From a virus: a stretch of DNA of 64,000 nt. The stretch covers positions 32,001 to 96,000 of IMG/VR virus record IMGVR_UViG_3300025141_013870, one strand, 5' to 3'. A program made the translations under genes and the position numbers. A model generated the notes under the pieces. The model was given only the letters and a program-made list of their open reading frames with translations. It had not been told where the DNA came from and made no database searches. The number at the start of each line of letters is the position of its first letter. Within the stretch, counting starts at the first letter, position 1. This document shows, piece after piece, positions 4,501 to 52,572 of the stretch.

Positions 4501-4552
4501 TGCACTGGACTTCGTCCTAACAAATGCTGGAGATGCATTTGAGAATGCATAA
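1505..4552 (+). CDS. Contractile tail sheath protein 2
   Basis: N-terminal SAGVYTTEIDQT and GTADEGPAYVP; C-terminal YPWFAPAGFTRG, DRVNVRRLL, FEPN, LQPTRTAEFVALDF. GGAG RBS upstream. Confidence 0.95.
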   Translation: MAEVTYSSAGVYTTEIDQTGPTTSVPSGVPGGIIGTADEGPAYVPITIGSYSDFARIFGATDGEKFGPLAVHQFLKNAQSLTYTRVLGIGDGKKRDTGTGKVTNAGFVVGAKTVQDNGNVGRNPYAIDDGVPGKTYFLGCFMSASAGSTLFTDAGIQKSNENQARPIVRGVLMAPSGVLLRLSGAGAVGNSQGAPSAILSAVNPTAAGDEGTGMVGGITGSVNIATKRFVMLLNGHLKTGDAPNVITASFDLEDASYFANVLNTDPAKIEEKGHLLYSHYDIHPALAAVTGTGVFVATHAFPSASAGGPALEPLAFLTTGSAGRNTGTSTAPDYESFEERFTHAKSPFVISQTFGGTKYSIVRIHALGDGRYTNTNIKISIENIKPSTSDAYKYGTFDLLVRKFEDTDLEKKVLEAYRGANLDPSSDKFIARIIGDMYSYFDFDQASSSQKLVLAGDHPVRSNYIRVEQSTHLKNGQVPKDALPFGFRGPDHLVTSGSAPLEGGFYSGALLQAGFNDRSLLNMAVEPPVPLRKNIVMGSLPNLIQDATWYWGVKFMQTVAIADGVNNTITLKNLTVDNFTKFFPSYGGSNRDVSVGNNPGVADSGGTVLDCDRFNNNIFTLERLTIRTGSDGKADPNEWVSASYTRTGNITANETNKTRALKSSDLSVQGNRTFCKYSFFLQRGFNGSNIFDKDKEKMLNAAVRREMDDSTAQGGTSGPTVSAYRKALDIMGTKSDVDIKLLAIPGIRHSSVSDYAIDTVESRFDAMYVMDIEERDEMNSVITSSVGSFANVSNTVTEFKGRALDTSFAAAYFPDVIMTDPTTHTNVQCPPSVAVMGAMSLNDAVGYPWFAPAGFTRGALGDVLFADVSLNKTNMDDLYDADINPLTAFPNTGVMVFGQKTLLAAASALDRVNVRRLLIDIRRKVRNIANLMLFEPNRQETLDKFSALVQPVLQSIQEKSGVDRFKVVIDATTTTQTDIENNTLRGKIFLQPTRTAEFVALDFVLTNAGDAFENA

Positions 4553-20373: not shown

Positions 20374-20402
20374 ATCAAGGGACGATTCGTCCCTTGATTT
20401 TT
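20374..20402 (+). terminator. Rho-independent terminator after SSB
   Basis: ATCAAGGGACG-ATT-CGTCCCTTGAT 11-bp stem followed by Ts. Confidence 0.85.
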
Positions 20403-20459
20403 ATAAAATGTAATTGAACATCACAGCAAAGTTTTAGTACCTTATATTAAAGGTAAATT

Positions 20460-21623
20460 ATGTCAAAAAAAAATAATGAAATAGAGGACTTTACATCTGA
20501 ACTGATATCTTCACTAAACAAGGAGCACGGATCAAGAGTTGCATATAATCTTAGTCAAGATGAATCGCCCACGCACGTAAAGCGATGGATATCAACTGGA
20601 TCAAAATTATTAGATTATATTTGCTCTAATAGAAGAAATGGTGGACTTCCTGAAGGAAGAATAGTAGAGATATTTGGTCCACCATCTATTGGAAAGTCGC
20701 ACATAGCAACACAAATAGCGAGATCTACCCAGAAAATGGGAGGAATAGCTGTCTACATAGATACAGAAAACGCAACATCAGTGGAAAATCTACAAATGCT
20801 GGGAGTTGATGTATCTAATAGATTCGTGTACGTAGACACACATTGTACAGAAGAGGTTTTTAAGGTAGCAGAATCTGTGATTCTTAAGTCAAAAGGAATG
20901 CACAAGGATGTTCCTGTTACTATCATTTGGGATTCTGTGGCAGCATCGTCACCTAAGGCAGAACTTCTTGGGGATTATGATAAGGAATCTATTGGCCTTC
21001 AAGCAAGATCAATATCTAAAGGCATGAGAAAGATAACAGGTGTTATTGGCGATCAATGTGTTTTATTTGTGATATTAAATCAAACAAGAATGAAGATAGG
21101 TGTGATGTTTGGTGATCCAACAACTACACCTGGCGGCAAGGCGATTCCATTTCATGCATCTACAAGAATAAAGCTAGGAGCTGGACAGCAGATAAAGGAT
21201 GGTGATGATGTGATTGGAATTCACGTTTCAGCAAAGACTATCAAGAACAAGGTAGCTGCACCTTTTAGAACTGCTAATTTCGAGATTCACTTTGGAGTCG
21301 GAATAAAAGAGCACGAGCAGATCTTTGATCTTTTGAGAAAGCACGGTCCAGAAACTTTGAACAATAAGGAGATATCTCTTTCAGGAACCGGAGCGTGGAA
21401 AACACTTAATGTTGTAGATACAAATACTGGCGAGATTATAATAGAAAAGAAATTTAGAAAAAATGAATTTTATCAGATATTAGAGAGCGATGAATACGGA
21501 AAATATATAGATGACTTTTTAGAGATGGCTATGGTGAAGAAATTTGCATCTGAACCTCCTGACATAGATAACGAATCATATATAGAGATCGAAGCCCTAT
21601 CTGATAGTTTGAGAGGAGACTAG
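20460..21623 (+). CDS. recA: RecA/UvsX recombinase
   Basis: GLPEGRIVEIFGPPSIGKS Walker A, IIWDSVAA Walker B, NQTRMKIGVMFGDPTTTPGGKAIPFHASTRI. Confidence 0.95.
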   Translation: MSKKNNEIEDFTSELISSLNKEHGSRVAYNLSQDESPTHVKRWISTGSKLLDYICSNRRNGGLPEGRIVEIFGPPSIGKSHIATQIARSTQKMGGIAVYIDTENATSVENLQMLGVDVSNRFVYVDTHCTEEVFKVAESVILKSKGMHKDVPVTIIWDSVAASSPKAELLGDYDKESIGLQARSISKGMRKITGVIGDQCVLFVILNQTRMKIGVMFGDPTTTPGGKAIPFHASTRIKLGAGQQIKDGDDVIGIHVSAKTIKNKVAAPFRTANFEIHFGVGIKEHEQIFDLLRKHGPETLNNKEISLSGTGAWKTLNVVDTNTGEIIIEKKFRKNEFYQILESDEYGKYIDDFLEMAMVKKFASEPPDIDNESYIEIEALSDSLRGD

Positions 21624-21630
21624 ACTGAAA

Positions 21631-22593
21631 GTGAATAAAACAAATTGCGAGTTTGTCTTATTAGTTGATGGGTTGAATTTGTTTACAAGACACTTTGTAG
21701 CGCATCCCGCAACAGCTTCAACTGGAGAACATGTCGGCGGAATAGTTGGATTCCTATACGCTATTATTGAATTTGCAGAGAGGTTTAAGCCCAATCAGAT
21801 TTTTGTGGTATGGGAAGGCGGCGGCTCATCTCGAAGAAGATCCATCTATAGCGAATATAAACAAAAGAGAAGGCCAGAAAAATTAAATAGATTCTATGAT
21901 GATGACATTCCCGATACAATTGAGAATAGAAATAACCAGATATCAACAATAGTTGATATTCTTAAACAGTCTCCAGTTAACCAGATTTATGTTCCAGATT
22001 GTGAAGCAGATGATGTGATAGGGTATCTCTGCAAGTATAGATTTAAAAACAATAGAAAGCTAGTAGTTTCTTCTGATAAGGATTTTTATCAACTTTTAGA
22101 TAGTAATACGATAATATATTCTCCAACATGGAAGAAGCTTGTTACATCAAAAGATGTCGTAGAGAAGTTTGGAATATCACCTGAAAACTTTTGTTTGGCA
22201 AAATCTATTTGTGGTGATGCATCTGACAATATCAATGGTGTAAAAAATGTTGGATTTAAAACTTTATCAAAAAGATTTCCAGATTTTTCAAAAAGAACGC
22301 CACTCATGATACAGGACATAGTAGATTTGTGCGATGACATGATCAAAGAGGGCGTAAAGCTAAAAGCCATCACTAACATATCAGAGTCAAAAGATCTAAT
22401 TAAGAGAAATTGGAAATTGATCTATCTAGATACAATAAGCTTATCATCAGATCAAATTTCTAAAATAAACTATTTGATTGATAATTTATGTGTCTCTAGA
22501 GATAAAGTTACTATGATGAGAATTTTCATAAGAGAAGGAATTCAAACATTCAATGTGGATAGATTTTTTCTATCTTTAAATCATATTAGGTAG
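21631..22593 (+). CDS. 5'-3' exonuclease / flap endonuclease (T4 RNase H-like)
   Basis: LLVDGLN, WEGGG, CEADDVIG, SSDKDFYQL, GDASDNINGV motifs. Confidence 0.92.
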   Translation: MNKTNCEFVLLVDGLNLFTRHFVAHPATASTGEHVGGIVGFLYAIIEFAERFKPNQIFVVWEGGGSSRRRSIYSEYKQKRRPEKLNRFYDDDIPDTIENRNNQISTIVDILKQSPVNQIYVPDCEADDVIGYLCKYRFKNNRKLVVSSDKDFYQLLDSNTIIYSPTWKKLVTSKDVVEKFGISPENFCLAKSICGDASDNINGVKNVGFKTLSKRFPDFSKRTPLMIQDIVDLCDDMIKEGVKLKAITNISESKDLIKRNWKLIYLDTISLSSDQISKINYLIDNLCVSRDKVTMMRIFIREGIQTFNVDRFFLSLNHIR

Positions 22594-22596
22594 GGT

Positions 22597-23985
22597 ATGA
22601 GCGAGACAACATCACATTTCAGTAGATATGGAAAGTCCTTTCAGGAAAAGATTTTCCAAGCATTTATCACAGATCAAAACTGGGCAGCACAAATGACAGA
22701 GGTGATGGACTCTTCATTTTTTGAACAGAAATATTTACAATATTTATCTAAAAAATATTTTGATTATTACTGTAAATACAAGTCATTTCCAACTCTTCCG
22801 CTATTGATAACAATAATAAGAGATGACCTTAGAGAGGGAAGTGACATTATCTTAAGAGATCAAATTATTGAGTTTCTTCATAGAATTAAGGTAAATCCTG
22901 ATGTGGGAGATCTTGAATTTGTTAAAGAGAAGTCACTTGATTTTTGTAAAAAACAAGCTCTTAAAAATGCCCTTGAGGTATCTGTTGATTTGATAGCAAC
23001 AGAGAAATATGAGTCAGTCATAGAAGTTATGAAAGATGCCATATGCAAAGGGATGCCTTCATCTATTGGTCATAACTTTTTTGAGGATTATGAATCACGA
23101 TTTACGAGATTTAGTCGTGTCACTTGCCCAACTGGGATACCAGAAATAGATAAAAAAGATATATTAAATGGCGGTCTCGGAAGAGGCGAGATAGGTGTCA
23201 TAACTGCTCCCACAGGTGTCGGGAAATCTCATTTTTTGGTTCATGTTGGATCTGAGGCACTAAGAGTTGGTAAAAATGTCATACATTATACGTTTGAACT
23301 ATCAGAGAGAGCTGCAGGATTAAGATATGATAGTAATCTTTGCGACATACCCAGCAATGAAGTGATAGATAGAAAGGATGAGGTCTTAAAAAAGTATGAT
23401 GATTCAGATTTTGGAAGGCTTATTATCAAGGAGTACCCTACTGGATCTGCTACAGTTACAACTATTAGAAATCACATTGAAAAACTTTTACTCAAGTCTT
23501 TTGTTCCCAGCTTGATAATTATTGATTATGCAGATATCATGCGATCATCAAGAAAATATGACTCTCTTCGTCACGAGCTAAAGTTAATTTATGAGGAATT
23601 GAGGAATCTCTCTATGGATATGAATATACCAATCTGGACAGCAAGTCAGGCGAATAGAGATGCAGCAAATGCGTCAGTTGTCGGATTAGAAAATATGGCA
23701 GAGGCGTACGGGAAAGCAATGGTGGCAGATGTAGTTTTATCGTTATCTAGAAAACCTATGGAAAAAGCATCTGGCTGCGGAAGGTTGTTTGTTGCCAAGA
23801 ATAGAGCAGGAAGAGATGGAATACTTTTTCCTATTCACCTAGATACAGCAAGGTCAAAAATCTATGTTGTAGAAAATGGTGATGAGATGTCATTAAGCGA
23901 TGTTGTCAAAACTGACGCTAATGCCATGAAAAATCTTTTAAAGCAGAAGTGGAAAGAAGTTAACGGTGACAGCCGCACGCAGTAA
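22597..23985 (+). CDS. Replicative DNA helicase (DnaB/gp41-like)
   Basis: GGLGRGEIGVITAPTGVGKS, LIIIDYADIM, IPIWTASQANR, VAKNRAG. Confidence 0.93.
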   Translation: MSETTSHFSRYGKSFQEKIFQAFITDQNWAAQMTEVMDSSFFEQKYLQYLSKKYFDYYCKYKSFPTLPLLITIIRDDLREGSDIILRDQIIEFLHRIKVNPDVGDLEFVKEKSLDFCKKQALKNALEVSVDLIATEKYESVIEVMKDAICKGMPSSIGHNFFEDYESRFTRFSRVTCPTGIPEIDKKDILNGGLGRGEIGVITAPTGVGKSHFLVHVGSEALRVGKNVIHYTFELSERAAGLRYDSNLCDIPSNEVIDRKDEVLKKYDDSDFGRLIIKEYPTGSATVTTIRNHIEKLLLKSFVPSLIIIDYADIMRSSRKYDSLRHELKLIYEELRNLSMDMNIPIWTASQANRDAANASVVGLENMAEAYGKAMVADVVLSLSRKPMEKASGCGRLFVAKNRAGRDGILFPIHLDTARSKIYVVENGDEMSLSDVVKTDANAMKNLLKQKWKEVNGDSRTQ

Positions 23986-24006
23986 AAATTATTATCGGAG
24001 AATTTT

Positions 24007-26466
24007 ATGAAAGTGTCTTTTAATAAAGCTCTGTCAGAAAGTATTGAATATTTTGGTGGTGATGAACTTGCTGCTAATATTTTTGTAACAAAATACGCAC
24101 TTTGTGATGAAGCTGGAAATTTTTATGAAAAGACGCCTGATGATATGCATAAAAGACTTGCATCTGAGTTTCATAGAATTGAAAAAAATTATCCCAATCC
24201 GATGACAGAGGATGAAATATATCATCTTTTTAAAGATTTTAAATATGTTATTCCACAAGGAAGCCCGATGGCTGGAATTGGAAATAACTTTAGAATTCAG
24301 TCTTTGTCAAATTGTTTCGTCATAGAGTCTCCACATGACTCATATGGTGGAATTCTTAAGTCAGATCAAGAGCTAGTACAAATAGCAAAAAGAAGAGGAG
24401 GAGTAGGCTTTGACATTTCGACAATACGACCAAAAGGGTGCACGACATCAAATGCTGCCAGAACTACTGACGGCATCGAAGTATTTATGGATAGATTTTC
24501 AAATTCGTGCAGAGAAGTGGCTCAGGGTGGACGCCGCGGAGCCCTTATGCTTACTATCTCTATTCATCATCCTCAAGTTAGAGATTTTATAAGAATTAAA
24601 AGAGATCTTTCTCGAGTGACAGGTGCCAACATATCAGTAAGACTAACAGATGAATTTATGAATGCTGTAGAAAATAAATCTGAAGTTGAGCTAAGATTTC
24701 CAGTTGATAGTGAATTTCCTGAAATGTCAGAGTCTGTAGACGCATCCGAGCTTTGGGATGAGATAATAGAGTCAGCACATGAATCTGCTGAACCAGGAAT
24801 TCTTTTTTGGGACACGGCGAAAAGATTAACACCTTCCGACATCTATGAAAAAGAAGGGTTTGGGTCAACATCTACAAATCCTTGCGGCGAGATAATTTTA
24901 AGCCCTGGAGATTCGTGTCGACTGATGCTAATAAATCTACTTTCATTTGTTGTCAATCCATTTAAAGATGATGCATTTTTTAATTTTAACAAGCTATCAG
25001 ATATCACCACAAAGGCGCAGAGGCTCATGGATGATATGGTCGATCTTGAAATAGAACAGGTTGATAAGATACTTGAAAAAATATTTGCTGATCCCGAACC
25101 TGAAAAAGTAAAAAAGATAGAAAAAGATCTATGGAAAAACATCAAAGAGCAGGCAATTAGAGGCAGAAGAACAGGATTGGGAATAACAGCTGTAGGTGAT
25201 ACACTCGCAGCGCTTAATGTAAGATATGGTTCAGATGAGTCAATTGATATAATTGAAAACATATACAAGACTCTTTGTGTCAATGCATATAGATCATCAT
25301 GTGTGATGGCAAAAGAGAGAGGGGCATTTCCAGTTCATGATTTTGCAAAAGAGACATATCATCCATTTTTAAGAAGAGTGTGGGAAGAAGATCCAGAACT
25401 CTTACAAATGAATGAAAAGTGGGGAAGAAGAAATATATCTCTTACAACTACCGCACCTGCAGGATCTGTGTCTACATTAACGCAAACAACATCCGGAATA
25501 GAGCCTGCCTATCTTCTTAAGTACACTAGAAGGAAGAAGATAAACCAATCTGATGAATCTGCATCTGTTGATTTTGTCGATGCTGTGGGAGATTCATGGC
25601 AAGAATATGATGTTTATCATCACGGATTCAAAAAGTGGATGGACATAACAGGAAAAACATCAGTTAAAAAATCACCATATTGGAAATCTACATCAAATGA
25701 TATTGACTGGGTCTCTAAAATAAAAGTTCAAGCTGCAGCACAGAAATGGGTATGCCATGCAATATCAAATACAACAAATGTTCCAGCAGACATAGACGTT
25801 GACACTGTTAAAAAAATCTATATTGATGGATGGAAGCTAGGTTGCAAAGGCGTAACAGTATATAGAGAAGGATGTAGATCGGGCGTTCTTGTTCCTACGG
25901 TTAGAGAAGATAAAAGTTTTGAATCTCATGATGCTCCATCTAGACCCGATGAGCTAGATTGTTCTATTCACCACGCGACAATTAAAGACGAGGCATGGAC
26001 AATTCTTGTAGGATTACTAGATGGAAGGCCATATGAGGTAATGGGAGGTCTCCAGAAGTATATTGAAATTCCGCGCAAGTACAAAGATGGAACAATTATC
26101 AAGCATCACTATAAGACAAAAAATTCTAGATATGATCTTCGTATTGGAAAAAACGGAGATGAAATTTTGATAAAGGATATTGTTTCAGTTTTTGATAATC
26201 CTAATCATGCTGGGTATACTAGGACGATATCCCTTGCACTTCGTCATGGAGCAAACATACATTATGTTGTTGAACAGCTGCAAAAAGACAGAGAGATGGA
26301 CATGTTCTCATTCTCAAAGGTTATTGCTAGAGTTCTTAAGAATTACATCAAGGATGGAACAGTACCAGGAAAGACGACATGTCAAAATTGTGGCGCTGAA
26401 GATACGCTGAGATATCAAGAAGGGTGTGTCATGTGCACAGCATGCGGATCATCCAAGTGTGGATAA
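24007..26466 (+). CDS. nrdJ: Class II (adenosylcobalamin-dependent) ribonucleotide reductase
   Basis: SLSNCF, RRGGGVG, QGGRRGALM, TNPCGEI, RRTGLG, TTAPAGS, KGVTVYREGCR; C-terminal CxxC...CxxC domain; no beta-subunit gene nearby. Confidence 0.9.
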   Translation: MKVSFNKALSESIEYFGGDELAANIFVTKYALCDEAGNFYEKTPDDMHKRLASEFHRIEKNYPNPMTEDEIYHLFKDFKYVIPQGSPMAGIGNNFRIQSLSNCFVIESPHDSYGGILKSDQELVQIAKRRGGVGFDISTIRPKGCTTSNAARTTDGIEVFMDRFSNSCREVAQGGRRGALMLTISIHHPQVRDFIRIKRDLSRVTGANISVRLTDEFMNAVENKSEVELRFPVDSEFPEMSESVDASELWDEIIESAHESAEPGILFWDTAKRLTPSDIYEKEGFGSTSTNPCGEIILSPGDSCRLMLINLLSFVVNPFKDDAFFNFNKLSDITTKAQRLMDDMVDLEIEQVDKILEKIFADPEPEKVKKIEKDLWKNIKEQAIRGRRTGLGITAVGDTLAALNVRYGSDESIDIIENIYKTLCVNAYRSSCVMAKERGAFPVHDFAKETYHPFLRRVWEEDPELLQMNEKWGRRNISLTTTAPAGSVSTLTQTTSGIEPAYLLKYTRRKKINQSDESASVDFVDAVGDSWQEYDVYHHGFKKWMDITGKTSVKKSPYWKSTSNDIDWVSKIKVQAAAQKWVCHAISNTTNVPADIDVDTVKKIYIDGWKLGCKGVTVYREGCRSGVLVPTVREDKSFESHDAPSRPDELDCSIHHATIKDEAWTILVGLLDGRPYEVMGGLQKYIEIPRKYKDGTIIKHHYKTKNSRYDLRIGKNGDEILIKDIVSVFDNPNHAGYTRTISLALRHGANIHYVVEQLQKDREMDMFSFSKVIARVLKNYIKDGTVPGKTTCQNCGAEDTLRYQEGCVMCTACGSSKCG

Positions 26467-26505
26467 ATTTTCAAAAAATAATACATAGTGCTAGGGGGAA
26501 AATTT

Positions 26506-26892
26506 ATGTCGTATTCAGATAAGGTATTAGATCATTTTAGCAACCCCCGTAATGTCGGAGCGATGGATAAAGATGATATCAATGTAGGCACAGGTATGGT
26601 CGGTGCTCCAGCGTGCGGCGATGTGATGAAGCTTCAGCTCAAGATCAATGACAGCGGCATCATCGAGGATGCCAAGTTCAAGACATTCGGCTGCGGTTCT
26701 GCTGTTGCATCAAGCTCTTTAATAACAACATGGGTAAAAGGATTGAATATAGCAGAGGCTGAGAAGATAAAAAATTCATCAATTGCAGAGGAGCTTTGCT
26801 TGCCGCCTGTGAAGATTCACTGTTCAGTTCTTGCTGAAGATGCTATAAAGGCTGCGATTAAAGATTACCGGATCAAGAATGACAAGAAGTGA
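26506..26892 (+). CDS. iscU: Fe-S cluster scaffold IscU
   Basis: YSDKVLDHFSNPRNVG, GAPACGDVMKLQ, FKTFGCGSA, LPPVKIHCSVLAEDAIKAA. Confidence 0.96.
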   Translation: MSYSDKVLDHFSNPRNVGAMDKDDINVGTGMVGAPACGDVMKLQLKINDSGIIEDAKFKTFGCGSAVASSSLITTWVKGLNIAEAEKIKNSSIAEELCLPPVKIHCSVLAEDAIKAAIKDYRIKNDKK

Positions 26893-27145
26893 TATACAAA
26901 AGCTCATTGATGAAGAAATCAACTCTGCCTTATCAATGCACGGAGGCCATGTTTCAATTCATGAATTTGACGAAGAGAGCAAATCTTTGAAATTAAAAAT
27001 GGGCGGTGGGTGTCATGGATGCTCATCATCAAGAATGACTATGAAAGTGGGAGTTGAAAATCTTCTCAGGGAGGTGTTTCCTGATATTGGAGAAATTGAG
27101 GATGTCACTGATCATTCAACAGGTGAAAATCCATACTATGACTAA
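26879..27145 (+). CDS. NfuA/NifU C-terminal domain Fe-S carrier
   Basis: HGG...MGGGCHGC and the C-terminal DVTDHSTGENPYY characteristic of NfuA. Confidence 0.88.
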   Translation: MTRSDIQKLIDEEINSALSMHGGHVSIHEFDEESKSLKLKMGGGCHGCSSSRMTMKVGVENLLREVFPDIGEIEDVTDHSTGENPYYD

Positions 27146-27154
27146 GGAACAAAT

Positions 27155-27481
27155 ATGGCAATAACAGTTACAGAGAAAGCAAGAATCAAAATAAAATCTC
27201 TGCTTAATCAGCGTCAAACTCCTGATCATTTTCTAAGGATAGGGTTAAGAGGAGGTGGCTGCTCTGGGTTTATGTATAAATATGAATTCATCGACAAGAC
27301 AGATGAGAAAGATAAGATATTTGAATTTGATGACATTAAAATTTGCATCGATATAAAATCCTATTTATTTCTTAATGGAATAGAGATAGATTATCAAGAA
27401 GACTTACTAAAGTCAGGCCTTGTGTTTAATGCTCCGGGAGCATCGCGAACGTGTGGCTGTGGTGAGTCAGTAACATTTTGA
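27155..27481 (+). CDS. iscA: A-type Fe-S carrier IscA/ErpA (HesB family)
   Basis: LRIGLRGGGCSGFMY and FNAPGASRTCGCGESV. Confidence 0.93.
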   Translation: MAITVTEKARIKIKSLLNQRQTPDHFLRIGLRGGGCSGFMYKYEFIDKTDEKDKIFEFDDIKICIDIKSYLFLNGIEIDYQEDLLKSGLVFNAPGASRTCGCGESVTF

Positions 27482-27485
27482 GGTA

Positions 27486-28091
27486 TTGATGAAGTGGATT
27501 ACAAAAGTATCTCCATTAATTAAGGAAATTGAATTAAGAAAAAATCCAGTAGTCATACGTGTTAATAAGTTTGATGAAAAATCATCAAAAGAATTTGATA
27601 ATCAAGTTGCTTTAGCGCATAATACTGGGCAAAAGGTTATTCCTATTGTCATTGACTCTTACGGCGGACAGGTTTATAGCTTGATGTCAATGATAAGTGC
27701 CATTAATCATTGTGAGATTCCAGTTGCTACAATAGTAGAAGGGAAGGCAATGTCATGTGGAGCTATACTTTTTTCATGCGGTGAGCAAGGCTTAAGGTTT
27801 ATGGATCCTGATGCGACAGTCATGATTCATGATGTTTCATCTATGGAGTATGGAAAAGTTGAAGAGATAAAAGCGTCAGCTGAAGAAACAGAGAGGCTTA
27901 ATCAAAAAGTCTATACAATTATGGCTAGAAACTGTGGAAAAAAAGACGATTATTTTTTAAAGCTCGTTCATAAAAAAGGACACGCAGATTGGTTTTTAGA
28001 TTCAACAGCTTGCAAAAAACACGGACTGGCTAATCAGATTCGTGTACCAAAGTTTAATATCAGCATTTCTGTTGATATAGATTTCGAATAA
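27486..28091 (+). CDS. clpP: ClpP-like ATP-dependent protease proteolytic subunit
   Basis: IDSYGG, GKAMSCGAIL (catalytic Ser), VMIHD (His), DWFL pattern. Confidence 0.8.
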   Translation: MMKWITKVSPLIKEIELRKNPVVIRVNKFDEKSSKEFDNQVALAHNTGQKVIPIVIDSYGGQVYSLMSMISAINHCEIPVATIVEGKAMSCGAILFSCGEQGLRFMDPDATVMIHDVSSMEYGKVEEIKASAEETERLNQKVYTIMARNCGKKDDYFLKLVHKKGHADWFLDSTACKKHGLANQIRVPKFNISISVDIDFE

Positions 28092-28101
28092 GGTAATATA
28101 A

Positions 28102-29649
28102 ATGTTATTTCAAGATTTGAATATAGAAAAACAAGATACAGATATTTTAAGCGACGACGCTGTAAAATTTTTATCTGATCTAACAAGAATGTTTAGACAA
28201 AGTCTGATATCACTTCTTCAAAGAAGAAACCTGCGTCAGGCATTTTATGATGAGAATCACTTTCCTAATTTTTTATCTGAGACAGTAGCTGTTAGACAGG
28301 GTGACTGGTCTGTTTGTGACATTCCAAATAGCATAAAAGATCGTCGAGTTGAGATAACGGGCCCTCCCGATAGAAAGATGATAATCAACGCTTTAAACTC
28401 TGGAGCAAAAGTGTATATGGCGGACTTTGAAGATTCAATGTCACCAACATGGGAAAATGTCGTCGATGGTCATGTAAACTTAATAGATGCAACAAGAAAG
28501 ACCATAACATACGAACACCCAAAAAAAGGAATGTATGAACTTAATGACGACGTAGCAGTGCTCTTTGTAAGGCCAAGGGGTCTTCACTTAAATGAATCTA
28601 ATTTTATAGTTGACAATAAGCCGATTCCAGCATCATTATTTGATTTTGGATTATTTTTATTTTACAATGGGAAGCTTCTAGCTGATAAAGATGAAGGACC
28701 ATATTTTTACATACCAAAATTAGAACACTATCTTGAAGCTAGATGGTGGAATGAGGTATTCACATGGTCACAAGAGGCTTTGGGCATACCGCATGGATCG
28801 ATAAAGGCAACAGTTCTAATAGAGACTCTACCGGCAGCATTTCAGATGGATGAGATACTATATGAGCTAAGAGACCATTCAGCTGGCTTAAACTGCGGAA
28901 GGTGGGATTATATCTTTAGCTATATAAAGACATTGAGAAATCATGATAACAGAATTCTACCAGATAGAAATACTGTCACGATGAATACACATTTTATGAA
29001 CTCATATGCAAAATTGTTGGTAAAGACATGCCACAAGCGCGGTGCACATGCTATGGGTGGAATGGCTGCACAAATTCCCATAAGAGGAGATCAGGAAAAG
29101 AATATTAAGGCATTGAACAAAGTCCGCGGAGATAAGATAAGAGAGGTTAATCTTGGACACGATGGAACGTGGGTCGCTCATCCAGGACTTGTAAAAATTG
29201 CAAAAGATGTATTTGATGAATATATGCCAGATGAAAACAATATTGAAAAGAAGATAGATTTTGTATGCTCAAGAGAAGACCTTCTTGATACACCCCAGGG
29301 TGAGATAACAGAGGAATGTTTAAGAAGCAATATCAATATCGGTATTCACTATATAGCAGCGTGGCTATCTGGCCAGGGATGCGTTCCTCTTTATAATCTA
29401 ATGGAGGATGCAGCAACTGCAGAGATATCTCGGGCTCAAACTTGGCAGTGGCTAAAACATGACAAGATTAGTATTGATAGATTTGAAGAAATTTTTATTG
29501 AAGAAATTAATAAAATAAGACATGAAGTTGGTGATTTAACATTTAAAAATTCTAATTATGAAAGCGCTTCACAGCTATTCGAACGCTTATCTGTATCTGA
29601 TGAGCTTGATAATTTTTTAACCTTAAAGGCCTATGAGCTAATATCCTAA
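28102..29649 (+). CDS. aceB: Malate synthase A
   Basis: [95 protein letters not shown]. Confidence 0.97.
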
Positions 29650-29660
29650 GGATCGTCTAT

Positions 29661-30899
29661 ATGACAACAGTCAAAAGAGATTTACCCCCCATTAAGAGAA
29701 CCTGGAACCAGGAAGATGTCAACAACCTCAGGGGTAATGTTAAAATTGAATATTCACTAGCCAGGTCAGGAGCTAACAAGCTATGGAATCTACTTCTAGA
29801 AGATGATCCCGTTACTGCGCTAGGAGCGTTAACTGGAAACCAGGCAATTCAACAAGTCAGAGGCGGCTTAAAGTCAATATATCTTAGCGGATGGCAGGTA
29901 GCAGCTGATGCAAATCTTTCTGGTAACATGTATCCAGATCAAAGCCTATATCCGGCAAATAGCGTGCCATCAGTCGTGAAGAGAATAAATCAAGCTCTGC
30001 AAAGAACAGATCAGGTTGAGAGCGTTGAAGGGAATATAACTAGAGACTGGATGGTTCCCATAGTTGCAGATGCTGAAGCTGGATTCGGAGGGCCTCTAAA
30101 CGCGCATGAGCTTATGAAAGGAATGATCGAAGCCGGCGCAGCAGGTGTACACTTTGAGGATCAATTATCTTCAGAAAAGAAATGTGGGCACCTGGGCGGA
30201 AAGGTTCTAGTTCCAACATCACAGTTTGTAACAACGTTAAAGGCTGCTCGTCTAGCTGCTGATGTTATGGACGTACCGACCGTTTTAATTGCAAGAACAG
30301 ATGCAAATAGCGCAAGATTAATGACATCTGACATAGATCCATATGATCACCAGTTTATGACAGGAGAAAGAACGCAGGAAGGATTTTATCGAATCACAGG
30401 CGGAATCAATCAGGCAATATCCAGAGGGCTGGCATACGCACCATACGCAGACTTGCTTTGGTGTGAGACATCTACTCCTGATCTTCACGAAGCTAAACTG
30501 TTTGCAGATGCAATTCATGAGAAATTTCCAGGAAAGATTCTAGCATACAATTGTTCACCATCGTTTAATTGGAAGAAAAATCTTGATGATGAGACAATAG
30601 AGATATTTCAAAGAGAGCTAAACGGTATGGGATATAAGTTTCAATTTGTAACTCTTGCTGGATTCCACTCACTTAACTACTCAATGTTTGATTTGGCTGA
30701 TAGATATCGAGATGGCGGAATGACAGCGTACGTTCAGCTTCAGGAGAGAGAATTTTCAGCAGAGGAAAGAGGATACACGGCGACAAAGCACCAGAGAGAG
30801 GTAGGGACTGGATATTTTGATGCAGTTAAGAATGCTCTGTCTGGGGGAGACTCTTCAACTCTTGCTATGACTGAATCTACAGAGTCTGATCAGTTTTAA
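29661..30899 (+). CDS. aceA: Isocitrate lyase (short type)
   Basis: [66 protein letters not shown]. Confidence 0.97.
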
Positions 30900-30901
30900 T
30901 T

Positions 30902-31834
30902 ATGGATAAGGACTTTTACAACAAGTCGAGCTCAGACAGCCTTGGGTGGAAACCTGAGTGGTTCGGGTGTAAATATTTCGATGAGGATCTTGTTAAAGCT
31001 GTAAGAAAGTGGCAGCGGGAGAACGGATTAACAGGCGACGGTCTTGTTGGTCCGATGACATATAGAAGAATATGGACAGAGAGAGAATCTCAAATTGATG
31101 AATTTAGACCCTATATCTATAGCCCCAAAGACAGTGCTTTCATAGTTCATAATGGAAAATTTATTCCTATAGACTGGGGAAAGGTGATTCTATGGTCTGA
31201 TACGGGTGGTCTCAAAGCTGCACCAGGAGCCTACTATAGCTATGGGGGATCAGAAGATAGAAATCCAACAATGTTTGTAAACCACTGGGATGTCTGTCTA
31301 TCAGCTGAGAGCTGTGCGAAGGTTCTTGCTAGAAGGGGCGTCTCAGTTCATTTCTGCATAGACAATGATGGAACGATCTATCAACTTCTTGATACACAGC
31401 ATGCAGCGTGGCATGCTGGAAATTCAAAGGTAAACAGAGCTAGTGTAGGTGTGGAAATCTCAAATGCATATTACACAAAATATCAGGACTGGTATGAGAG
31501 ACACGGGTTTGGAGAGCGACCACTATGGACAGACGCAGAGGTCCACGGAAAGACGCAGAAACCATTTTTAGGATTCTATGACGTTCAAATAGAGGCAGCT
31601 AAAGCTCTATGGAGAGCTATTCATGACGGGCTAGGCATTCCGCTAGAGTGCCCAGTAGATTCTTCTGGAGATATGGTTACAACAACAGTGAGCGAAGTGG
31701 CTTCTGGTAAGTTTAAAGGATTTATTCATCACTTTCATGTAACAAGAGGAAAGATCGACTGCGCAGGATTCGATCTAAAGAATCCTCTTGATGAAGTTAG
31801 AACAAGTAGAAAATATTGTATTGATAAGGAATAG
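30902..31834 (+). CDS. Endolysin: peptidoglycan-binding domain plus N-acetylmuramoyl-L-alanine amidase
   Basis: VRKWQRENGLTGDGLVGPMT (PG-binding domain); HW, SVHFCIDNDGTIYQ, AWHAGN, SVGVEI, HFHVTRGKIDC (amidase_2). Confidence 0.88.
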   Translation: MDKDFYNKSSSDSLGWKPEWFGCKYFDEDLVKAVRKWQRENGLTGDGLVGPMTYRRIWTERESQIDEFRPYIYSPKDSAFIVHNGKFIPIDWGKVILWSDTGGLKAAPGAYYSYGGSEDRNPTMFVNHWDVCLSAESCAKVLARRGVSVHFCIDNDGTIYQLLDTQHAAWHAGNSKVNRASVGVEISNAYYTKYQDWYERHGFGERPLWTDAEVHGKTQKPFLGFYDVQIEAAKALWRAIHDGLGIPLECPVDSSGDMVTTTVSEVASGKFKGFIHHFHVTRGKIDCAGFDLKNPLDEVRTSRKYCIDKE

Positions 31835-32884
31835 ATGAAAATGAGACATATGAAGATAGAATATGTGTGGATCGATGGTTGCAACCCATGGGGATTAAGA
31901 TCAAAGGTGAAGGTTTTAAAATTGTCAGATGCCAACTTTAATGACACAATAGAAGGGAGCATTGATAACATTCCTGAGTGGGGGTTTGATGGATCGTCAA
32001 CTGAGCAGGCGTCTGGCGGCGACTCTGATTGTCTTCTACGGCCTGTCAGGTGTGTCGTAGACTCAATAAGAAACGACTACACCTCAGCAATAGTCTTATG
32101 TGACGTTCTTATGGGAGATGGATTTCCCCACCCAACAAACAATAGGTCGTCACTACTAGAGACATCAAGGCTGTGTGAAAGTCACAAGCCTTTCTTTGGT
32201 ATCGAGCAGGAGTATACAATAATGAAAGATGAGAGGCCTCTCGGATTTCCTCCGTCTGGATACCCGGCTCCCCAAGGAAAGTATTATTGCTCAGCGGGCG
32301 GAGATAGATCATATGGAAGGAACATATCAGATGAGCATCTAGATGCGTGCATAGCATCTGGTCTCAATATTACAGGAACAAATGCCGAGGTCATGCCAGG
32401 ACAGTGGGAATATCAGATAGGGGGACCAGGCGTAGGGCCCGTGGAAGCGAGTGACGAGCTCTGGATATCTAGATGGATTCTATTAAAGGTAGCAGAGAGA
32501 AATGGAATGACTGTCACGTTTGAGCCAAAGCCCATGCTTGGTGACTGGAATGGCGCAGGATGTCACACAAATTTTAGCACAGAGAAGATGAGAGAGGAAG
32601 GCGGCATGAGACACATTGAGCAGGCATGCAAGAAGATGTCAAATAACATCCAGCCTCATCTTGACGCGTATGGTGACGGCATAGAGTTTAGACTGACAGG
32701 AATGCACGAGACCTGCTCATATAGTGAGTTTAAGTGGGGCGTGGCTGATAGAACAGCGTCAATAAGAATACCAAGGGGTGTATCAAATGATGGTCGAGGA
32801 TATCTCGAGGATAGAAGACCCAATGCCAATTGTGATCCATATCAGGTCTGTAAGGTGATATTAGAATCGACGTGTATAGATTAA
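31835..32884 (+). CDS. glnII: Glutamine synthetase type II (GSII)
   Basis: EYVWIDG, WGFDGSST, FGIEQEY, NAEVMPGQWEYQIG, PKPMLGDWNGAGCHTNFS, RLTGMHET, GVADRTASIRIP, YLEDRRPNANCDPY; 349 aa. Confidence 0.94.
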   Translation: MKMRHMKIEYVWIDGCNPWGLRSKVKVLKLSDANFNDTIEGSIDNIPEWGFDGSSTEQASGGDSDCLLRPVRCVVDSIRNDYTSAIVLCDVLMGDGFPHPTNNRSSLLETSRLCESHKPFFGIEQEYTIMKDERPLGFPPSGYPAPQGKYYCSAGGDRSYGRNISDEHLDACIASGLNITGTNAEVMPGQWEYQIGGPGVGPVEASDELWISRWILLKVAERNGMTVTFEPKPMLGDWNGAGCHTNFSTEKMREEGGMRHIEQACKKMSNNIQPHLDAYGDGIEFRLTGMHETCSYSEFKWGVADRTASIRIPRGVSNDGRGYLEDRRPNANCDPYQVCKVILESTCID

Positions 32885-32929
32885 ACGACTTGGATAAGAT
32901 ACATCATCTTATCCCATATACTTATTAAC

Positions 32930-33157
32930 ATGAAAACGTATATCACCTCTGATCTGCCCGTAGCAGCTTTTCTCATGATGAGAGGCCTGGCATTAGTCCG
33001 CGCTGATAGGCAGTCTGGTAGGTTTGTATTCGAGCTAGAGGATCCTGACGGAAAGGCTGCAAAGTTTGCAATAGAGTATCTAAACAGCGACTTTTGTAAG
33101 TTTGATAACTACATAAGAAATTTAAAAAGTGTGCTGTATCAGAATAAAAAACCTTGA
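32930..33157 (+). CDS. Small conserved hypothetical protein (resembles DUF5659)
   Basis: YITSDLPVAAFL...GRFVFELED pattern recalled from small phage proteins; preceded by ATACTTATT. Confidence 0.55.
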   Translation: MKTYITSDLPVAAFLMMRGLALVRADRQSGRFVFELEDPDGKAAKFAIEYLNSDFCKFDNYIRNLKSVLYQNKKP

Positions 33158-33332
33158 GTAGATTCTCGGCTCACGAATATATAATACTAAATCAGTCAGT
33201 ATTGTAGGTATTCCTTAGAAAGTTAAAAAATGTTAATGATGGTTTGATCTGTTTATCTTGCGTGTGTGATAGAAAGAAACGGTCAGTAAAAAAACTTAAA
33301 CCATTTTTTTAATAACAAAAAGGAGATAAATA

Positions 33333-35777
33333 ATGGCTATAAAATCACAAATTAGAGTACAGCAGGTAACAGGATCTATTATAGATATTGCATACTCTGG
33401 CTCACAAACATCGGCTACAAGCCTCACATCCGTCGATGATGGGGATCTTGGTAGTCTTTTAGGTCAGTTTGCTGGCGCAATCGGTAGAATATCCGGTTAC
33501 AACGGTTCGGCGGCGACTGGGTTCACAAACGCAGCAGCCGGTACATTTGCTCAGGATATTATTCCGGAAGCAGACGGAACACGTGACTTAGGTTCCTCTA
33601 CGAGAGAATGGGCAGAGGTTCACGCTAATGCGATTAACTCTGCTGCTACACTTGTCATCAGCGGCACTACTGGTCTTACACTTGATGCAACAACAGTGTC
33701 AATCGATGGTATTGACGATTCTAACATCACTGTAACAGCATCTGGAAAGGACTTAAATATCGGCGTTGCTGGCGGCGGAGCTCAAGTACTCAAGCTAGAT
33801 TCAGCTGGTACAGGTACTGACGCTATTGACGTTAATGCTTCTGCTGGCGGAATTGACATCGACGCATCCGGTGCAATCAGTTTAGACTCTTCAGCTGGAT
33901 CAATCGACATCAATGTAGTGGACGGCCAGACGGTGAGCGTCGGCCTAAACGGGGCAGTCGAGACAATATGGACGCCACATGCCACTGCAGGTAACGAGAA
34001 GTGGTCAACGACCAACACTGCTGGTACCGCGACTGATGCAATTGCGCTCACTGCGACTGCTGGCGGTGTTACAGTTGATGGCGGAGGTGGTGTCAATATT
34101 GTTGGTAACACTGCTGAGGTTGATATTACGACGACAGGTGCACTTGACCTAAATTCAGGCGCTTTTACCTTGAATGGATCTACTGTTGGAATTGATGGTA
34201 CAAGTGTCTTGACTCTGGGTGCAGCTTCAATGAATATTGATTCTGATGGTGGAGCAATTGATATGGATGCATCAACCACAGTTACCATTGGTGGCTCCAA
34301 CGCAACCGGCGTTACAATCGGTCGAGCAGATAAGAACGTTACAATTCCTGGAAACCTGATAGTTAACGGTACTGCAACTTACATTAATACAAGCGAGTTG
34401 ATGGTAGAAGATAAGCAGGTGGTCATCGGTATTCCTGGTGGCATGACAGACCCCGGAACTGCTACATACGCTCTAACTTCAGATGTTGTCACGGTAACAA
34501 GCGAAGCCCACGGGTTGACGAACGGACAGTATGTTCTCATATCTGATCCAGCCGCAACGCCACTTATCCCTGAGGGAGTCTATCTGATTACCTCTGTTGC
34601 TGATGCTGATACATTCACATTTGCATATGTCAGGGCTAATGTTCCCGCTGGTACTGCTATCGATCACTCAGTGAACGATGTAACAGACGCTACTGCTAGT
34701 GGATCTGGAATAATGCTTGCACCTGCATCAGCTGTACCGACCTTGCTTAAGTGGGATTCGACGACTGGTTGGCTCTTAGGCGGACCTGCTTCGTCAACTG
34801 CTGGCCTTTCACCAAATGTCGACGGCTCAGGAGCTCTTGGTGCTCCAGCTAAACGATGGGCAGATCTCTTCCTCGCGGAAGGTGGTGTTATCAACTGGGA
34901 TAATGGTGATATGACCATGACTCAGGCTAGCGATGTTCTTACTGTTGCTGGCGGCGATATCCTTATGGATACCACTCAGAAGATTACTTTTGGTAACGCT
35001 AATAACGCTATCAATCTTAATACTGATCTCGTCATTGATGCTGCTGCTGACATCACTCTTGATGCCGCTGGTGGAAATGTTAAACCTGCTTCGAATGATC
35101 AGGCTGCTCTCGGTGTTAGTGGAACGGGTTGGTCAGACCTATTCCTTGCTGATGGTGCTGTGATTGACGTTAATGCTGGTAACTCCACTCTCACGGGTGG
35201 AAGTGCTGCTTGGGTTTCAAACGTTAAGTTCCAGGCTACAAGACTACAAGTTGATGGTGCTAATGACTATCTTGATGTCAACACTGATTTCACTATGACT
35301 GCTGCTGCAGATATTCGCCTTGCGGCGGGTGGTGCAGATGTTCAGCTTCGAGGCAGTGGAACCAATGACTTCATCTCCTTACAGAGAGCTAGTACAACAA
35401 TTCAATACATGAACTTTGCAGCTGATGATTCTTCTGCAGCTCCTGGTGTTGCTGCAGCCGGTTTCGGTTTCCGCAACAATGCTGGGACCATGCAGTTCAA
35501 GAATAGCGCTGGATCATGGCAGAACATCGCTGCTGGAACAGGTGAAGCTCGTGTTAAGGATGTCGTAACAGTTGCAGCGACAGCGACAGCAGTTACATCC
35601 ACATCTAGTGGATTCCTAGCATTGGCTCCAAATGATCTTGATGTCTACCTAAACGGACAGCTGATGGCATCTGGATCTGGAGGTACTGGTAATGACTATA
35701 ACGTCACAGCAACAAGTGTGGTTACATTCACATTTAATGTTGAGCCAGATGACACCGTAACGTTTGTCAAGCCCTAA
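33333..35777 (+). CDS. Fibre-like / beta-rich structural protein
   Basis: 814 aa rich in G/A/T/D/S, beta-strand repeats, three copies of a P-x(3)-D-x(3)-LG-x(5)-W-x-(D/E)-(L/V) motif; strong AAGGAG RBS and its own terminator. Confidence 0.65.
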   Translation: MAIKSQIRVQQVTGSIIDIAYSGSQTSATSLTSVDDGDLGSLLGQFAGAIGRISGYNGSAATGFTNAAAGTFAQDIIPEADGTRDLGSSTREWAEVHANAINSAATLVISGTTGLTLDATTVSIDGIDDSNITVTASGKDLNIGVAGGGAQVLKLDSAGTGTDAIDVNASAGGIDIDASGAISLDSSAGSIDINVVDGQTVSVGLNGAVETIWTPHATAGNEKWSTTNTAGTATDAIALTATAGGVTVDGGGGVNIVGNTAEVDITTTGALDLNSGAFTLNGSTVGIDGTSVLTLGAASMNIDSDGGAIDMDASTTVTIGGSNATGVTIGRADKNVTIPGNLIVNGTATYINTSELMVEDKQVVIGIPGGMTDPGTATYALTSDVVTVTSEAHGLTNGQYVLISDPAATPLIPEGVYLITSVADADTFTFAYVRANVPAGTAIDHSVNDVTDATASGSGIMLAPASAVPTLLKWDSTTGWLLGGPASSTAGLSPNVDGSGALGAPAKRWADLFLAEGGVINWDNGDMTMTQASDVLTVAGGDILMDTTQKITFGNANNAINLNTDLVIDAAADITLDAAGGNVKPASNDQAALGVSGTGWSDLFLADGAVIDVNAGNSTLTGGSAAWVSNVKFQATRLQVDGANDYLDVNTDFTMTAAADIRLAAGGADVQLRGSGTNDFISLQRASTTIQYMNFAADDSSAAPGVAAAGFGFRNNAGTMQFKNSAGSWQNIAAGTGEARVKDVVTVAATATAVTSTSSGFLALAPNDLDVYLNGQLMASGSGGTGNDYNVTATSVVTFTFNVEPDDTVTFVKP

Positions 35778-35814
35778 TAAGATCTCTTCTAATTAGATTA
35801 GATTTTAGTTTCCT

Positions 35815-35856
35815 GGCGGGGTCCTTTTTATAAGGACCCCGCCTTTTTATTTTTTC
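35815..35856 (+). terminator. Rho-independent terminator
   Basis: GGCGGGGTCCTT-TTTAT-AAGGACCCCGCC perfect 12-bp stem followed by TTTTTATTTTTTT. Confidence 0.92.
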
Positions 35857-51564: not shown

Positions 51565-52572
51565 ATGAAAAGAGCACTAGTAACAGGAGGATGCGGATTT
51601 ATCGGATCCAATCTTTCAAAGAGACTTGTAAAAGACGGATGGGTTGTTGACATTGTAGATGATCTATCAAGTGGACATTTAGAGCTAGTTCAAGAATTAA
51701 AGATTAGAGTTATACCGGTAGACTTGTTATCACAATTTTATGATAATTTTGATAGAGATGAAGGAACAGTTCACATTTTGCAAGGTGATTTTTCACATGA
51801 CAATGTGTTAAAAAATATCATTGATCAAAAATATGATTATGTTTTTCATCAGGCTGCGATACCAAGGGTCCTTTTTTCTGTTGAAAACCCATCTTTAACA
51901 ACAGAAGTGAATATAGCAGAAACGGTTAGGTTGTTTGAGGCATGCATAGGAAGTGTCAAGAGAGTCATATTTGCATCATCATCATCTGTTTACGGAGGCG
52001 CGGATGTTCTTCCCACACGTGAAAGTATGTCAAAAAATCCTAAGTCACCATATGCGTGGCAAAAGAGCGCAGTTGAAGATATAGCGGAATTATTTTGTCA
52101 ATTATACGATATTGATATCGTATGCTTAAGATACTTTAACGTCTTTGGACCAGGCCAGTATGGCGACTCTCCGTACTCCACAGCAGTTTCTGCCTGGTGT
52201 CACGCACTTAAAAATGGATCGCCTATGAGAAGTGACGGTGATGGATCACAAACAAGAGATATGTGCTATATTGACAATGTTATCCACGCTAACGTACTAG
52301 CTGCTGAATCTGATCGAACGAGATTTGATGGATTTAATGGAAGATGCTATAATATTTCATGCGGAGATAGAACATCTAATTCTGAAATATTAGAATACTT
52401 TACAAAGAGATATTCTCACGCAGCTGTTGTCAATGCTCCCTGGAGACCTGGTGATGTAATGCACACCCAGGCAGATATATCAAGAGCAAGCGAAGAGATT
52501 GGATATGAACCTCTTGTGAGATTCTGGGACGGACTAGAAAAGACTATTGAATGGTGGGGTATAGATTCTTGA
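51565..52572 (+). CDS. NAD-dependent NDP-sugar epimerase/dehydratase (extended SDR)
   Basis: LVTGGCGFIGS, VFHQAA, FASSSSVYG, SPYAWQK (YxxxK), LRYFNVFGP, GDGSQTRD. Confidence 0.93.
   Translation: MKRALVTGGCGFIGSNLSKRLVKDGWVVDIVDDLSSGHLELVQELKIRVIPVDLLSQFYDNFDRDEGTVHILQGDFSHDNVLKNIIDQKYDYVFHQAAIPRVLFSVENPSLTTEVNIAETVRLFEACIGSVKRVIFASSSSVYGGADVLPTRESMSKNPKSPYAWQKSAVEDIAELFCQLYDIDIVCLRYFNVFGPGQYGDSPYSTAVSAWCHALKNGSPMRSDGDGSQTRDMCYIDNVIHANVLAAESDRTRFDGFNGRCYNISCGDRTSNSEILEYFTKRYSHAAVVNAPWRPGDVMHTQADISRASEEIGYEPLVRFWDGLEKTIEWWGIDS

Follow-up and report, generated by a model that had tools for sequence, protein, structure and literature searches.

The question raised by this locus is whether a phage can own both enzymes of the glyoxylate shunt and, if so, what it would gain from them. 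The locus lies in a 64,000-nucleotide stretch of viral DNA (the window), which comprises bases 32001–96000 of the 118,248-bp linear IMG/VR record IMGVR_UViG_3300025141_013870, a contig with a CheckV completeness of 37%. Within the window, the gene for malate synthase A (MS; aceB, product P0001, 515 aa) is followed by the gene for isocitrate lyase (ICL; aceA, product P0002, 412 aa), and both enzymes are intact and phage-borne. Taken together, the evidence makes it very probable that aceBA is a genuine pair of auxiliary metabolic genes in a jumbo myovirus, a set of shunt enzymes for the supply of four-carbon (C4) compounds that was captured once and is now carried as an optional cassette.

Both proteins have the features of complete enzymes. 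P0001 matches the Pfam domains MS_N (residues 8–61), MS_TIM-barrel (153–396), and MS_C (401–514), all above the gathering scores (E = 9e-110), and its three-domain architecture of N-terminal domain, TIM barrel, and C-terminal plug is complete. It scores 730.2 bits against the malate_syn_A equivalog TIGR01344 (cut-off, 594.5), covering model positions 1–510 of 511, and only 24.8 bits against the malate synthase G model; the match to the structure PDB 3cux reaches 620 bits. The GRWDY motif is kept, and R157, E241, D269, and D436 align with R166, E250, D278, and D447 of Escherichia coli malate synthase A (PDB 3cuz), of which we take R166 and D447 to be the catalytic Arg and Asp and E250 and D278 to be the two Mg2+ ligands. 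These four residues are invariant among 13 phage orthologs. P0002 matches the Pfam ICL family (E = 1e-100), the isocitrate lyase equivalog NF011645 (732.2 bits; cut-off, 562), TIGR01346 (564.7 bits; cut-off, 275.9), and PDB 6lrp (638 bits), and stays under the cut-offs of the two prpB models (102.9 and 88.3 bits against 354 and 353). As judged from these scores, it is distinct from the 2-methylisocitrate lyase PrpB, with a side activity on methylisocitrate being conceivable. The motif KKCGH occupies residues 173–177 and is invariant in 14 phage ICLs, together with S76-G77-W78, D137/E139, E166, R212, E269, N297/S299/S301, and T331; the residues of these active-site motifs are identical to those of PDB 6lrp in the alignment. 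Conservation was judged per motif, as the offsets to the numbering of Mycobacterium tuberculosis ICL differed by one residue. The roles of the residues are presumably those assigned in the M. tuberculosis and E. coli structures, with KKCGH forming the catalytic loop that carries the active-site cysteine. The predicted activities are therefore malate synthase (EC 2.3.3.9) and isocitrate lyase (EC 4.1.3.1). An earlier note on this DNA, made from the letters alone, had described an intact malate synthase A and isocitrate lyase, adjacent in aceB–aceA order and with GRWDY and KKCGH preserved, and this description holds in full: the proteins are full-length and above the NCBIfam equivalog cut-offs, both motifs are present, and the genes lie on the plus strand at the positions that it had given them.

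The same note had named an assembly chimera with host DNA as the danger to its reading, that is, two bacterial genes misjoined to a phage contig or carried in as host contamination. Such an origin would account for the fact that both proteins are typical bacterial enzymes, 55–72% identical to many bacterial homologs, and for a gene order that is common in bacteria, where ICL lies beside MS in 51 of the 80 loci sampled. It does not agree with what is found in other viruses. A scan of IMG/VR with ICL returned 82 viral loci, and at least 12 divergent contigs from different samples share the order UvsX, exonuclease, DnaB, ribonucleotide reductase (RNR), iron–sulfur (Fe-S) genes in some, ClpP, MS, ICL, and amidase; in all of these, MS is directly upstream of ICL, with identities to the window of 53–76% for MS and 68–85% for ICL. 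The aceBA stretch also recurs in several marine metagenome runs. In run X1, a 5,553-nt contig covers 27812–33364, from ClpP to GlnII, with zero differences, and in run X2, a 5,541-nt contig covers 24477–30017, from RNR to ICL; these two runs may be source samples. The independent run X3 contains contigs over 27948–29476 and 30320–31825, which bridge both flanks of aceBA. Read depth is even through the block, and composition is that of the phage: the GC content at third codon positions averages 0.309 over the genome (standard deviation, 0.053) and amounts to 0.291 in MS and 0.334 in ICL, and the codon-usage z-scores are +0.75 and −0.04, respectively. Moreover, only 2–11 nt separate the pair from the phage genes at either side, and the phage enzymes fall into clades of their own, as described below. 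Given conserved synteny, bridging contigs, even depth, phage-like composition, and these trees, the chimera was rejected after testing, and we consider it hardly credible.

Phylogeny of both proteins, a further check that the earlier note had proposed, places the phage MS and the ICLs linked to it each in a clade apart from the sampled bacteria. The 13 viral MS proteins lie on one side of a single branch, with a support of 98 in FastTree and an SH-aLRT value of 98 in IQ-TREE, and the 14 MS-linked ICLs do likewise with an SH-aLRT value of 94.9. In a larger FastTree, 72 of the 119 metagenomic clusters closest to it fall within the viral MS clade, which includes no bacterial genome representative; the phage-specific clade amounts to at least 70 clusters at 90% identity. 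In a search of 5.8 billion proteins, the closest sequences are metagenomic, at 82, 77, 76, and 65% identity, and named bacterial proteins appear from about 57–58%; against bacterial genomes, the best MS match is 59% identical among the 597 matches listed. Synonymous sites are saturated (proportion of synonymous differences, pS, at least 0.69), the corresponding nonsynonymous proportion (pN) is 0.13–0.30, and the ratio of nonsynonymous to synonymous rates (dN/dS) is about 0.03–0.16, values that are to be read as resembling upper bounds because of the saturation. They indicate strong purifying selection on both genes. Since ICL and MS are adjacent in most of the sampled bacteria, the pattern fits the capture of aceB–aceA as one unit, and the pair was probably taken up in this way a single time.

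ICL on its own has had a different history in phages. Viral contigs with only ICL form separate clades, one of them beside gamma- and betaproteobacterial ICLs, and it therefore appears that ICL has been taken up several times by phages. More than 60 IMG/VR contigs, some of them 200–360 kb long, have ICL without malate synthase (loci L010–L082), and in several members of the large ICL-only clade near the gamma- and betaproteobacteria, ICL is immediately preceded by IscU and IscA. Within the phages that carry the pair, one locus is discordant: at L006 (6446–9206), MS groups with those of L027 and L039 (53% identical to the window), and the adjacent ICL groups with that of L003 (80% identical), which suggests that recombination among phages of this family has replaced one of the two genes. 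Related MS proteins (P0063 and P0018) are also present on contigs of 288–309 kb.

The status of the pair in its phage family was assessed with the ribonucleotide reductase NrdJ as the family marker. An IMG/VR scan gave 178 relatives, 80 of which were examined, and 54 loci had enough sequence downstream of RNR to be informative. The slot in question lies between ClpP and an endolysin-like amidase. ClpP is its conserved left anchor, with 52–85% identity wherever the DNA downstream of RNR suffices, and the amidase is its usual right anchor, lying within ~1.5 kb of ClpP in relatives without aceBA. The pair is present at this slot in 15 of the informative loci and absent in 39, where absence refers to the slot only, as one member of the same family (L022) has the pair in another context. 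On the RNR tree, this distribution takes at least six gains or losses, five of which are forced by well-supported branches, and reflects either repeated loss or exchange among related phages. The nearest relative without the pair, L171, whose RNR is 83% identical, reads IscU, NifU, IscA, ClpP, a 135-aa open reading frame (ORF), amidase, and homologs of the ORFs at 32930 and 33333, with neither aceBA nor GlnII. Thus, the region from ClpP to the amidase is a variable island, and aceBA is an optional cassette within it. GlnII is a second such cassette, found only in some relatives. The Fe-S genes adjoin aceBA in several relatives, not in all: aceBA occurs without IscU in L004, L020, and L073, and IscU–IscA occurs without aceBA in L171 and L232–L235. 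The two sets assort independently and therefore do not form an obligate unit.

If the predicted activities hold, the route from acetyl-CoA to C4 acids can be drawn from phage and host parts. The phage ICL would cleave isocitrate made by the host to succinate and glyoxylate, and the phage malate synthase A would condense glyoxylate with acetyl-CoA to malate, while citrate synthase, aconitase, and malate dehydrogenase would come from the host. Genes for aconitase, isocitrate dehydrogenase (IDH), and AceK were not found in the contig and four relatives, five family records that are all fragments, and PF06315 (AceK) has no match in the same set. Given that neither AceK nor IDH appears to be encoded, flux would be diverted by the phage lyase competing with host IDH. 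In terms of carbon, two acetyl-CoA would yield one C4 acid without loss of CO2, and nucleotide synthesis would be fed with C4 skeletons, by way of oxaloacetate and aspartate, and with glutamine through GlnII; at the same time, a lower output of NADH would cut the demand on iron-rich respiration. The benefit is most likely the supply of C4 compounds for nucleotide synthesis from acetyl-CoA, and a redirection of acetate- or lipid-derived carbon into biosynthesis, as the earlier note had proposed, is plausible. That the shunt can be useful in infection is suggested by Pseudoalteromonas infected with phage HP1, in which no genes of the tricarboxylic acid cycle are induced more strongly than the host's aceA and aceB (PMC7082346). 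The phage pair sits amid recombination, replication, and RNR genes, not virion genes, which suggests expression with the DNA-synthesis program.

A different weighting of the same biochemistry has to be considered, namely that the main selected benefit is the sparing of iron and redox capacity, not the conservation of carbon. By skipping two NADH-yielding decarboxylations, the shunt would reduce electron flow through the iron-rich Complex I and lessen oxidative damage, and, together with the phage IscU, NifU, IscA, and superoxide dismutase (SOD), would let a host that is short of iron or under oxidative stress stay productive up to lysis. The genomic setting speaks for this, as the Fe-S assembly genes immediately precede the pair within one stretch free of strong terminators and an Fe/Mn SOD domain protein is encoded in the window (Table 1). 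So does published work: in marine heterotrophs, the shunt is upregulated under iron limitation, for which a bypass of Complex I has been proposed (PMC11069385), and a phage Fe-S-related gene is co-expressed with host aceAB in virocells (PMC7082346). An iron- and redox-sparing role therefore matches the neighborhood at least as well as the redirection of carbon does. On the other side stand the independent occurrence of the Fe-S genes and aceBA in relatives and an RNR that is B12-dependent, not iron-dependent. We regard iron sparing as the principal benefit as possible, though not probable; it should be noted that the two benefits are compatible and that both could hold. A third role, in which aceBA acts in a lysogenic or pseudolysogenic carrier state and aids host growth on C2 compounds, has been proposed by Nishimura et al. 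for their aceBA virus (PMC5332604), and one relative of the window phage (G002) is labeled a provirus in IMG/VR. This label may only be an artifact of host-like metabolic genes. The genome is of the type of a large T4-like myovirus that encodes replication proteins of its own, the pair is placed among replication genes, and no tyrosine integrase occurs in the 571 kb of five family records, which are fragments and in which serine recombinases were not searched for. A role in lysogeny is accordingly very unlikely.

Several observations count against the view of aceBA as a pair captured once and kept for C4 supply. Monophyly of the viral MS drops to an SH-like support of 76 in the larger FastTree, and a closer cellular donor could exist beyond the 597 bacterial matches listed. 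Roughly two thirds of the related phages have no aceBA at the slot, so the pair is not essential. In addition, sigma-70-like promoter sites do not exceed the shuffled expectation in number (55 versus 49.6), and the T4 late-promoter motif TATAAATA shows no enrichment, with 4 occurrences observed and 4.9 expected. The contig also represents only ~37% of the genome, and further relevant genes may be missed. A more tentative and rather unlikely proposal is that aceBA, GlnII, the Fe-S genes, and SOD make up a mix-and-match "starvation tool-kit" island, in which aceBA was captured a single time in the distant past and has since been lost or exchanged repeatedly between members of the family according to the local iron or carbon regime. 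Were this the case, the presence or absence of aceBA would be an indicator of how nutrient-stressed the infected host population is, and the island would belong to one cosmopolitan family of uncultured marine jumbo phages.

The earlier note is in substance right in its interpretation, but phages with shunt genes have been met before, and its statement that the two genes together are rarely reported in bacteriophages is only partly right. It makes the pair out to be newer than it is: aceAB reads were found in Pacific viromes by Hurwitz et al. in 2013 (PMC4053976), Nishimura et al. in 2017 described an aceBA operon in a Tara viral genome that is complete at 178.6 kb and has structural genes of T4-like type (PMC5332604), and a 2025 preprint on huge phages counts 98 ICL and 22 MS genes, adjacent in 20 cases (10.1101/2025.02.27.640493). 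In the viral databases, a survey of which the note had also suggested, the pair was found in the at least 12 IMG/VR contigs named above, and malate synthase is in no true GenBank phage record, the matches being only to bacterial records or to evidently bacterial fragments filed as phage. The window pair is thus a well-documented further case and not a new kind. What is added here is that the phage enzymes form a phage-specific, strongly conserved clade, that the pair is an optional cassette at a defined slot, and that ICL-only phages acquired their ICL separately.

The closest published counterpart is TARA_ERS478052_N000008, the virus of Nishimura et al. Like the window phage, it is a marine, uncultured, large T4-like phage (~37.5% GC), and it has malate synthase A (502 aa) and isocitrate lyase (411 aa) in the order aceB–aceA with a 15-nt gap, as compared by gene table (PMC5332604). 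The settings differ: in that virus, the pair lies among small hypothetical ORFs and NinG/HNH, UvdE, and DnaQ-like genes, whereas in the window phage, it occupies the ClpP–amidase slot of a block with NrdJ, Fe-S genes, and GlnII. The genome sizes differ as well, the Tara genome being complete at 178.6 kb and that of the window's family being estimated at ~270–320 kb. The contig also fits the description given in the huge-phage catalog, in which the phages with MS belong to marine, soil, and plant-related habitats and glutamine synthetase occurs in 247 phages (10.1101/2025.02.27.640493). That preprint provides counts, to which a phylogeny, selection estimates, and a map of presence and absence within a family are added here. 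Among GenBank records, phage C48C1 (OQ984149, Kyanoviridae) is the only true phage with a full-length ICL of the window type, 57% identical and annotated as hypothetical; genes for a NifU-like protein and DnaB are close by. This phage lacks malate synthase, and its ICL is a long branch among bacterial sequences, outside the aceBA-phage clade.

Compared with bacterial aceBA and aceBAK, as in E. coli (PDB 3cuz for malate synthase A, 1igw for ICL), the phage pair has the same enzymes, gene order, and catalytic residues, and the same adjacency is seen in many bacterial phyla. The differences lie in regulation, spacing, and descent. Neither aceK nor the gene for IDH was found in the phage, so the known phosphorylation switch is missing; aceK is linked to aceBA in the enterobacterial operon, and here it is an amidase and GlnII that come after aceA. 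The intergenic gap is 11 nt, compared with ~70–250 nt in the sampled bacterial loci, and the phage MS and ICL, unlike the bacterial ones, stand in their own clades.

These genes matter beyond the locus itself. Shunt genes in phages imply a rewiring, by some abundant marine phages, of the branch point at which host carbon is either respired to CO2 or kept, which is of consequence for models of carbon flow in infected cells. Moreover, the natural comparisons of members with and without the pair within one family make the ecological hypothesis testable in metagenomes.

The pair is embedded in a compact block of phage genes (Table 1). ClpP and MS are 10 nt apart, and MS and ICL 11 nt; the amidase follows ICL after 2 nt, and GlnII follows the amidase with a gap of 0 nt. 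An AAGG(A) ribosome-binding site precedes both aceB and aceA. A scan for terminators returned only two strong plus-strand sites, with stems of 11–12 bp, and the 15.4 kb between them contain UvsX, the 5'–3' exonuclease, DnaB, NrdJ, the Fe-S genes, ClpP, aceBA, the amidase, GlnII, and an 814-aa ORF, an arrangement that would allow co-transcription across the whole stretch. Repeats flanking aceBA are only short, imperfect, chance-level matches, and no Rfam family was found between positions 19 kb and 37 kb of the window. The description of the surroundings in the earlier note, with phage-type neighbors (RNR, ClpP, and endolysin), tight spacing, and no marks of mobile elements, is in agreement with these results: the neighbors are a class II RNR, a ClpP-like protein, and a protein with PG_binding_1 and Amidase_2 domains, and spacing within the pair and to the phage genes on both sides is 2–11 nt.

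Table 1. Coordinates of aceBA and of the surrounding features, in window positions.
Feature	Position	Strand	Basis
aceB, malate synthase A, 515 aa (P0001)	28102–29649	+	Pfam, TIGR01344, structure alignment
aceA, isocitrate lyase, 412 aa (P0002)	29661–30899	+	Pfam ICL, NF011645, TIGR01346
NrdJ, class II (adenosylcobalamin) ribonucleotide reductase	24007–26466	+	TIGR02504, 467 bits (cut-off 400)
IscU	26488–26892	+	Pfam NifU_N; TIGR01999 iscU, 221 bits (cut-off 192)
NifU C-terminal domain protein	26879–27145	+	Pfam NifU
IscA-type carrier	27155–27481	+	Pfam Fe-S_biosyn; TIGR00049, 110 bits (cut-off 58.8)
ClpP-like serine protease subunit	27486–28091	+	Pfam CLP_protease, E = 3e-27
Endolysin-like N-acetylmuramoyl-L-alanine amidase with peptidoglycan-binding domain	30902–31834	+	Pfam Amidase_2, PG_binding_1
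GlnII-like (type II) glutamine synthetase	31835–32884	+	Pfam Gln-synt_N, Gln-synt_C
814-aa ORF	33333–35777		No Pfam, PHROG, or NCBIfam match
Fe/Mn superoxide dismutase C-terminal domain protein, 236 aa	56218–56928		E = 7e-18
Stretch free of strong terminators	20374–35843	+	Hairpins at its ends, 20374–20398 and 35815–35843
SbcC-like nuclease, large terminase, portal, major head protein, two tail-sheath paralogs	Upstream of aceBA		
gp32-like, UvsX, 5'–3' exonuclease, DnaB, class II RNR, DnaJ, ThyX, large DNA polymerase	Around and after aceBA		

The ClpP-like protein is below every NCBIfam ClpP cut-off (87 bits versus 249) and scores 62 bits versus 120 against the model for ClpP-related head-maturation proteases; its gene is highly conserved in the replication block of the family, distant from the head genes. 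The GlnII-like protein reaches 435 bits against the GlnII equivalog NF041605, under the cut-off of 500. The SOD domain protein lies ~25 kb downstream of aceBA, and the N-terminal SOD domain was not reported for it. No other ORF of the block has so high a GC content (0.48) or departs so far from the usual codon usage (z = −2.7) as the 814-aa ORF, whose counterpart in L171 is 58% identical.

As to the phage itself, the 118-kb record is 96% coding, with 120 of its 125 ORFs on one strand, and tRNA genes were found neither in the window nor in the whole record. Viral hallmark genes flank aceBA on both sides, with large terminase (TerL), portal, major capsid protein (MCP), and sheath upstream and DNA polymerase, ThyX, and DnaJ downstream. 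A relative of 201.6 kb, whose capsid protein is 68% identical to that of the window phage, is rated 73% complete, and the genome size of the family is therefore probably ~270–320 kb. The source is probably an uncultured marine jumbo myovirus that is distantly T4-like. By TerL and MCP, the nearest cultured relatives are Flavobacterium phage immuto (44–46%) and Microcystis phage Mel-JY01 (42–44%), and T4-like cyanophages are ~33% identical in terminase and capsid. Cultured relatives at 42–46% are too far off to name the host, and assignment by the MS and ICL trees failed, as the phage clades are nested in no sampled bacterial phylum.

Other features of the family were noted in passing. The relative labeled as a provirus, G002, is the 102-kb contig of locus L059 and carries the family capsid gene (64% identical) and no tyrosine integrase. 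Two adjacent tail-sheath paralogs are very long, with 1064 aa (G000, 30271–33465) and 1015 aa (window, 1505–4552), and in both, it is the C-terminal part that matches PHROG tail-sheath families. Finally, the window encodes a protein of the GDP-mannose 4,6-dehydratase/NAD-dependent epimerase family at 51565–52572; Gmd and other polysaccharide genes are also present in the aceBA virus of Nishimura et al. (PMC5332604).

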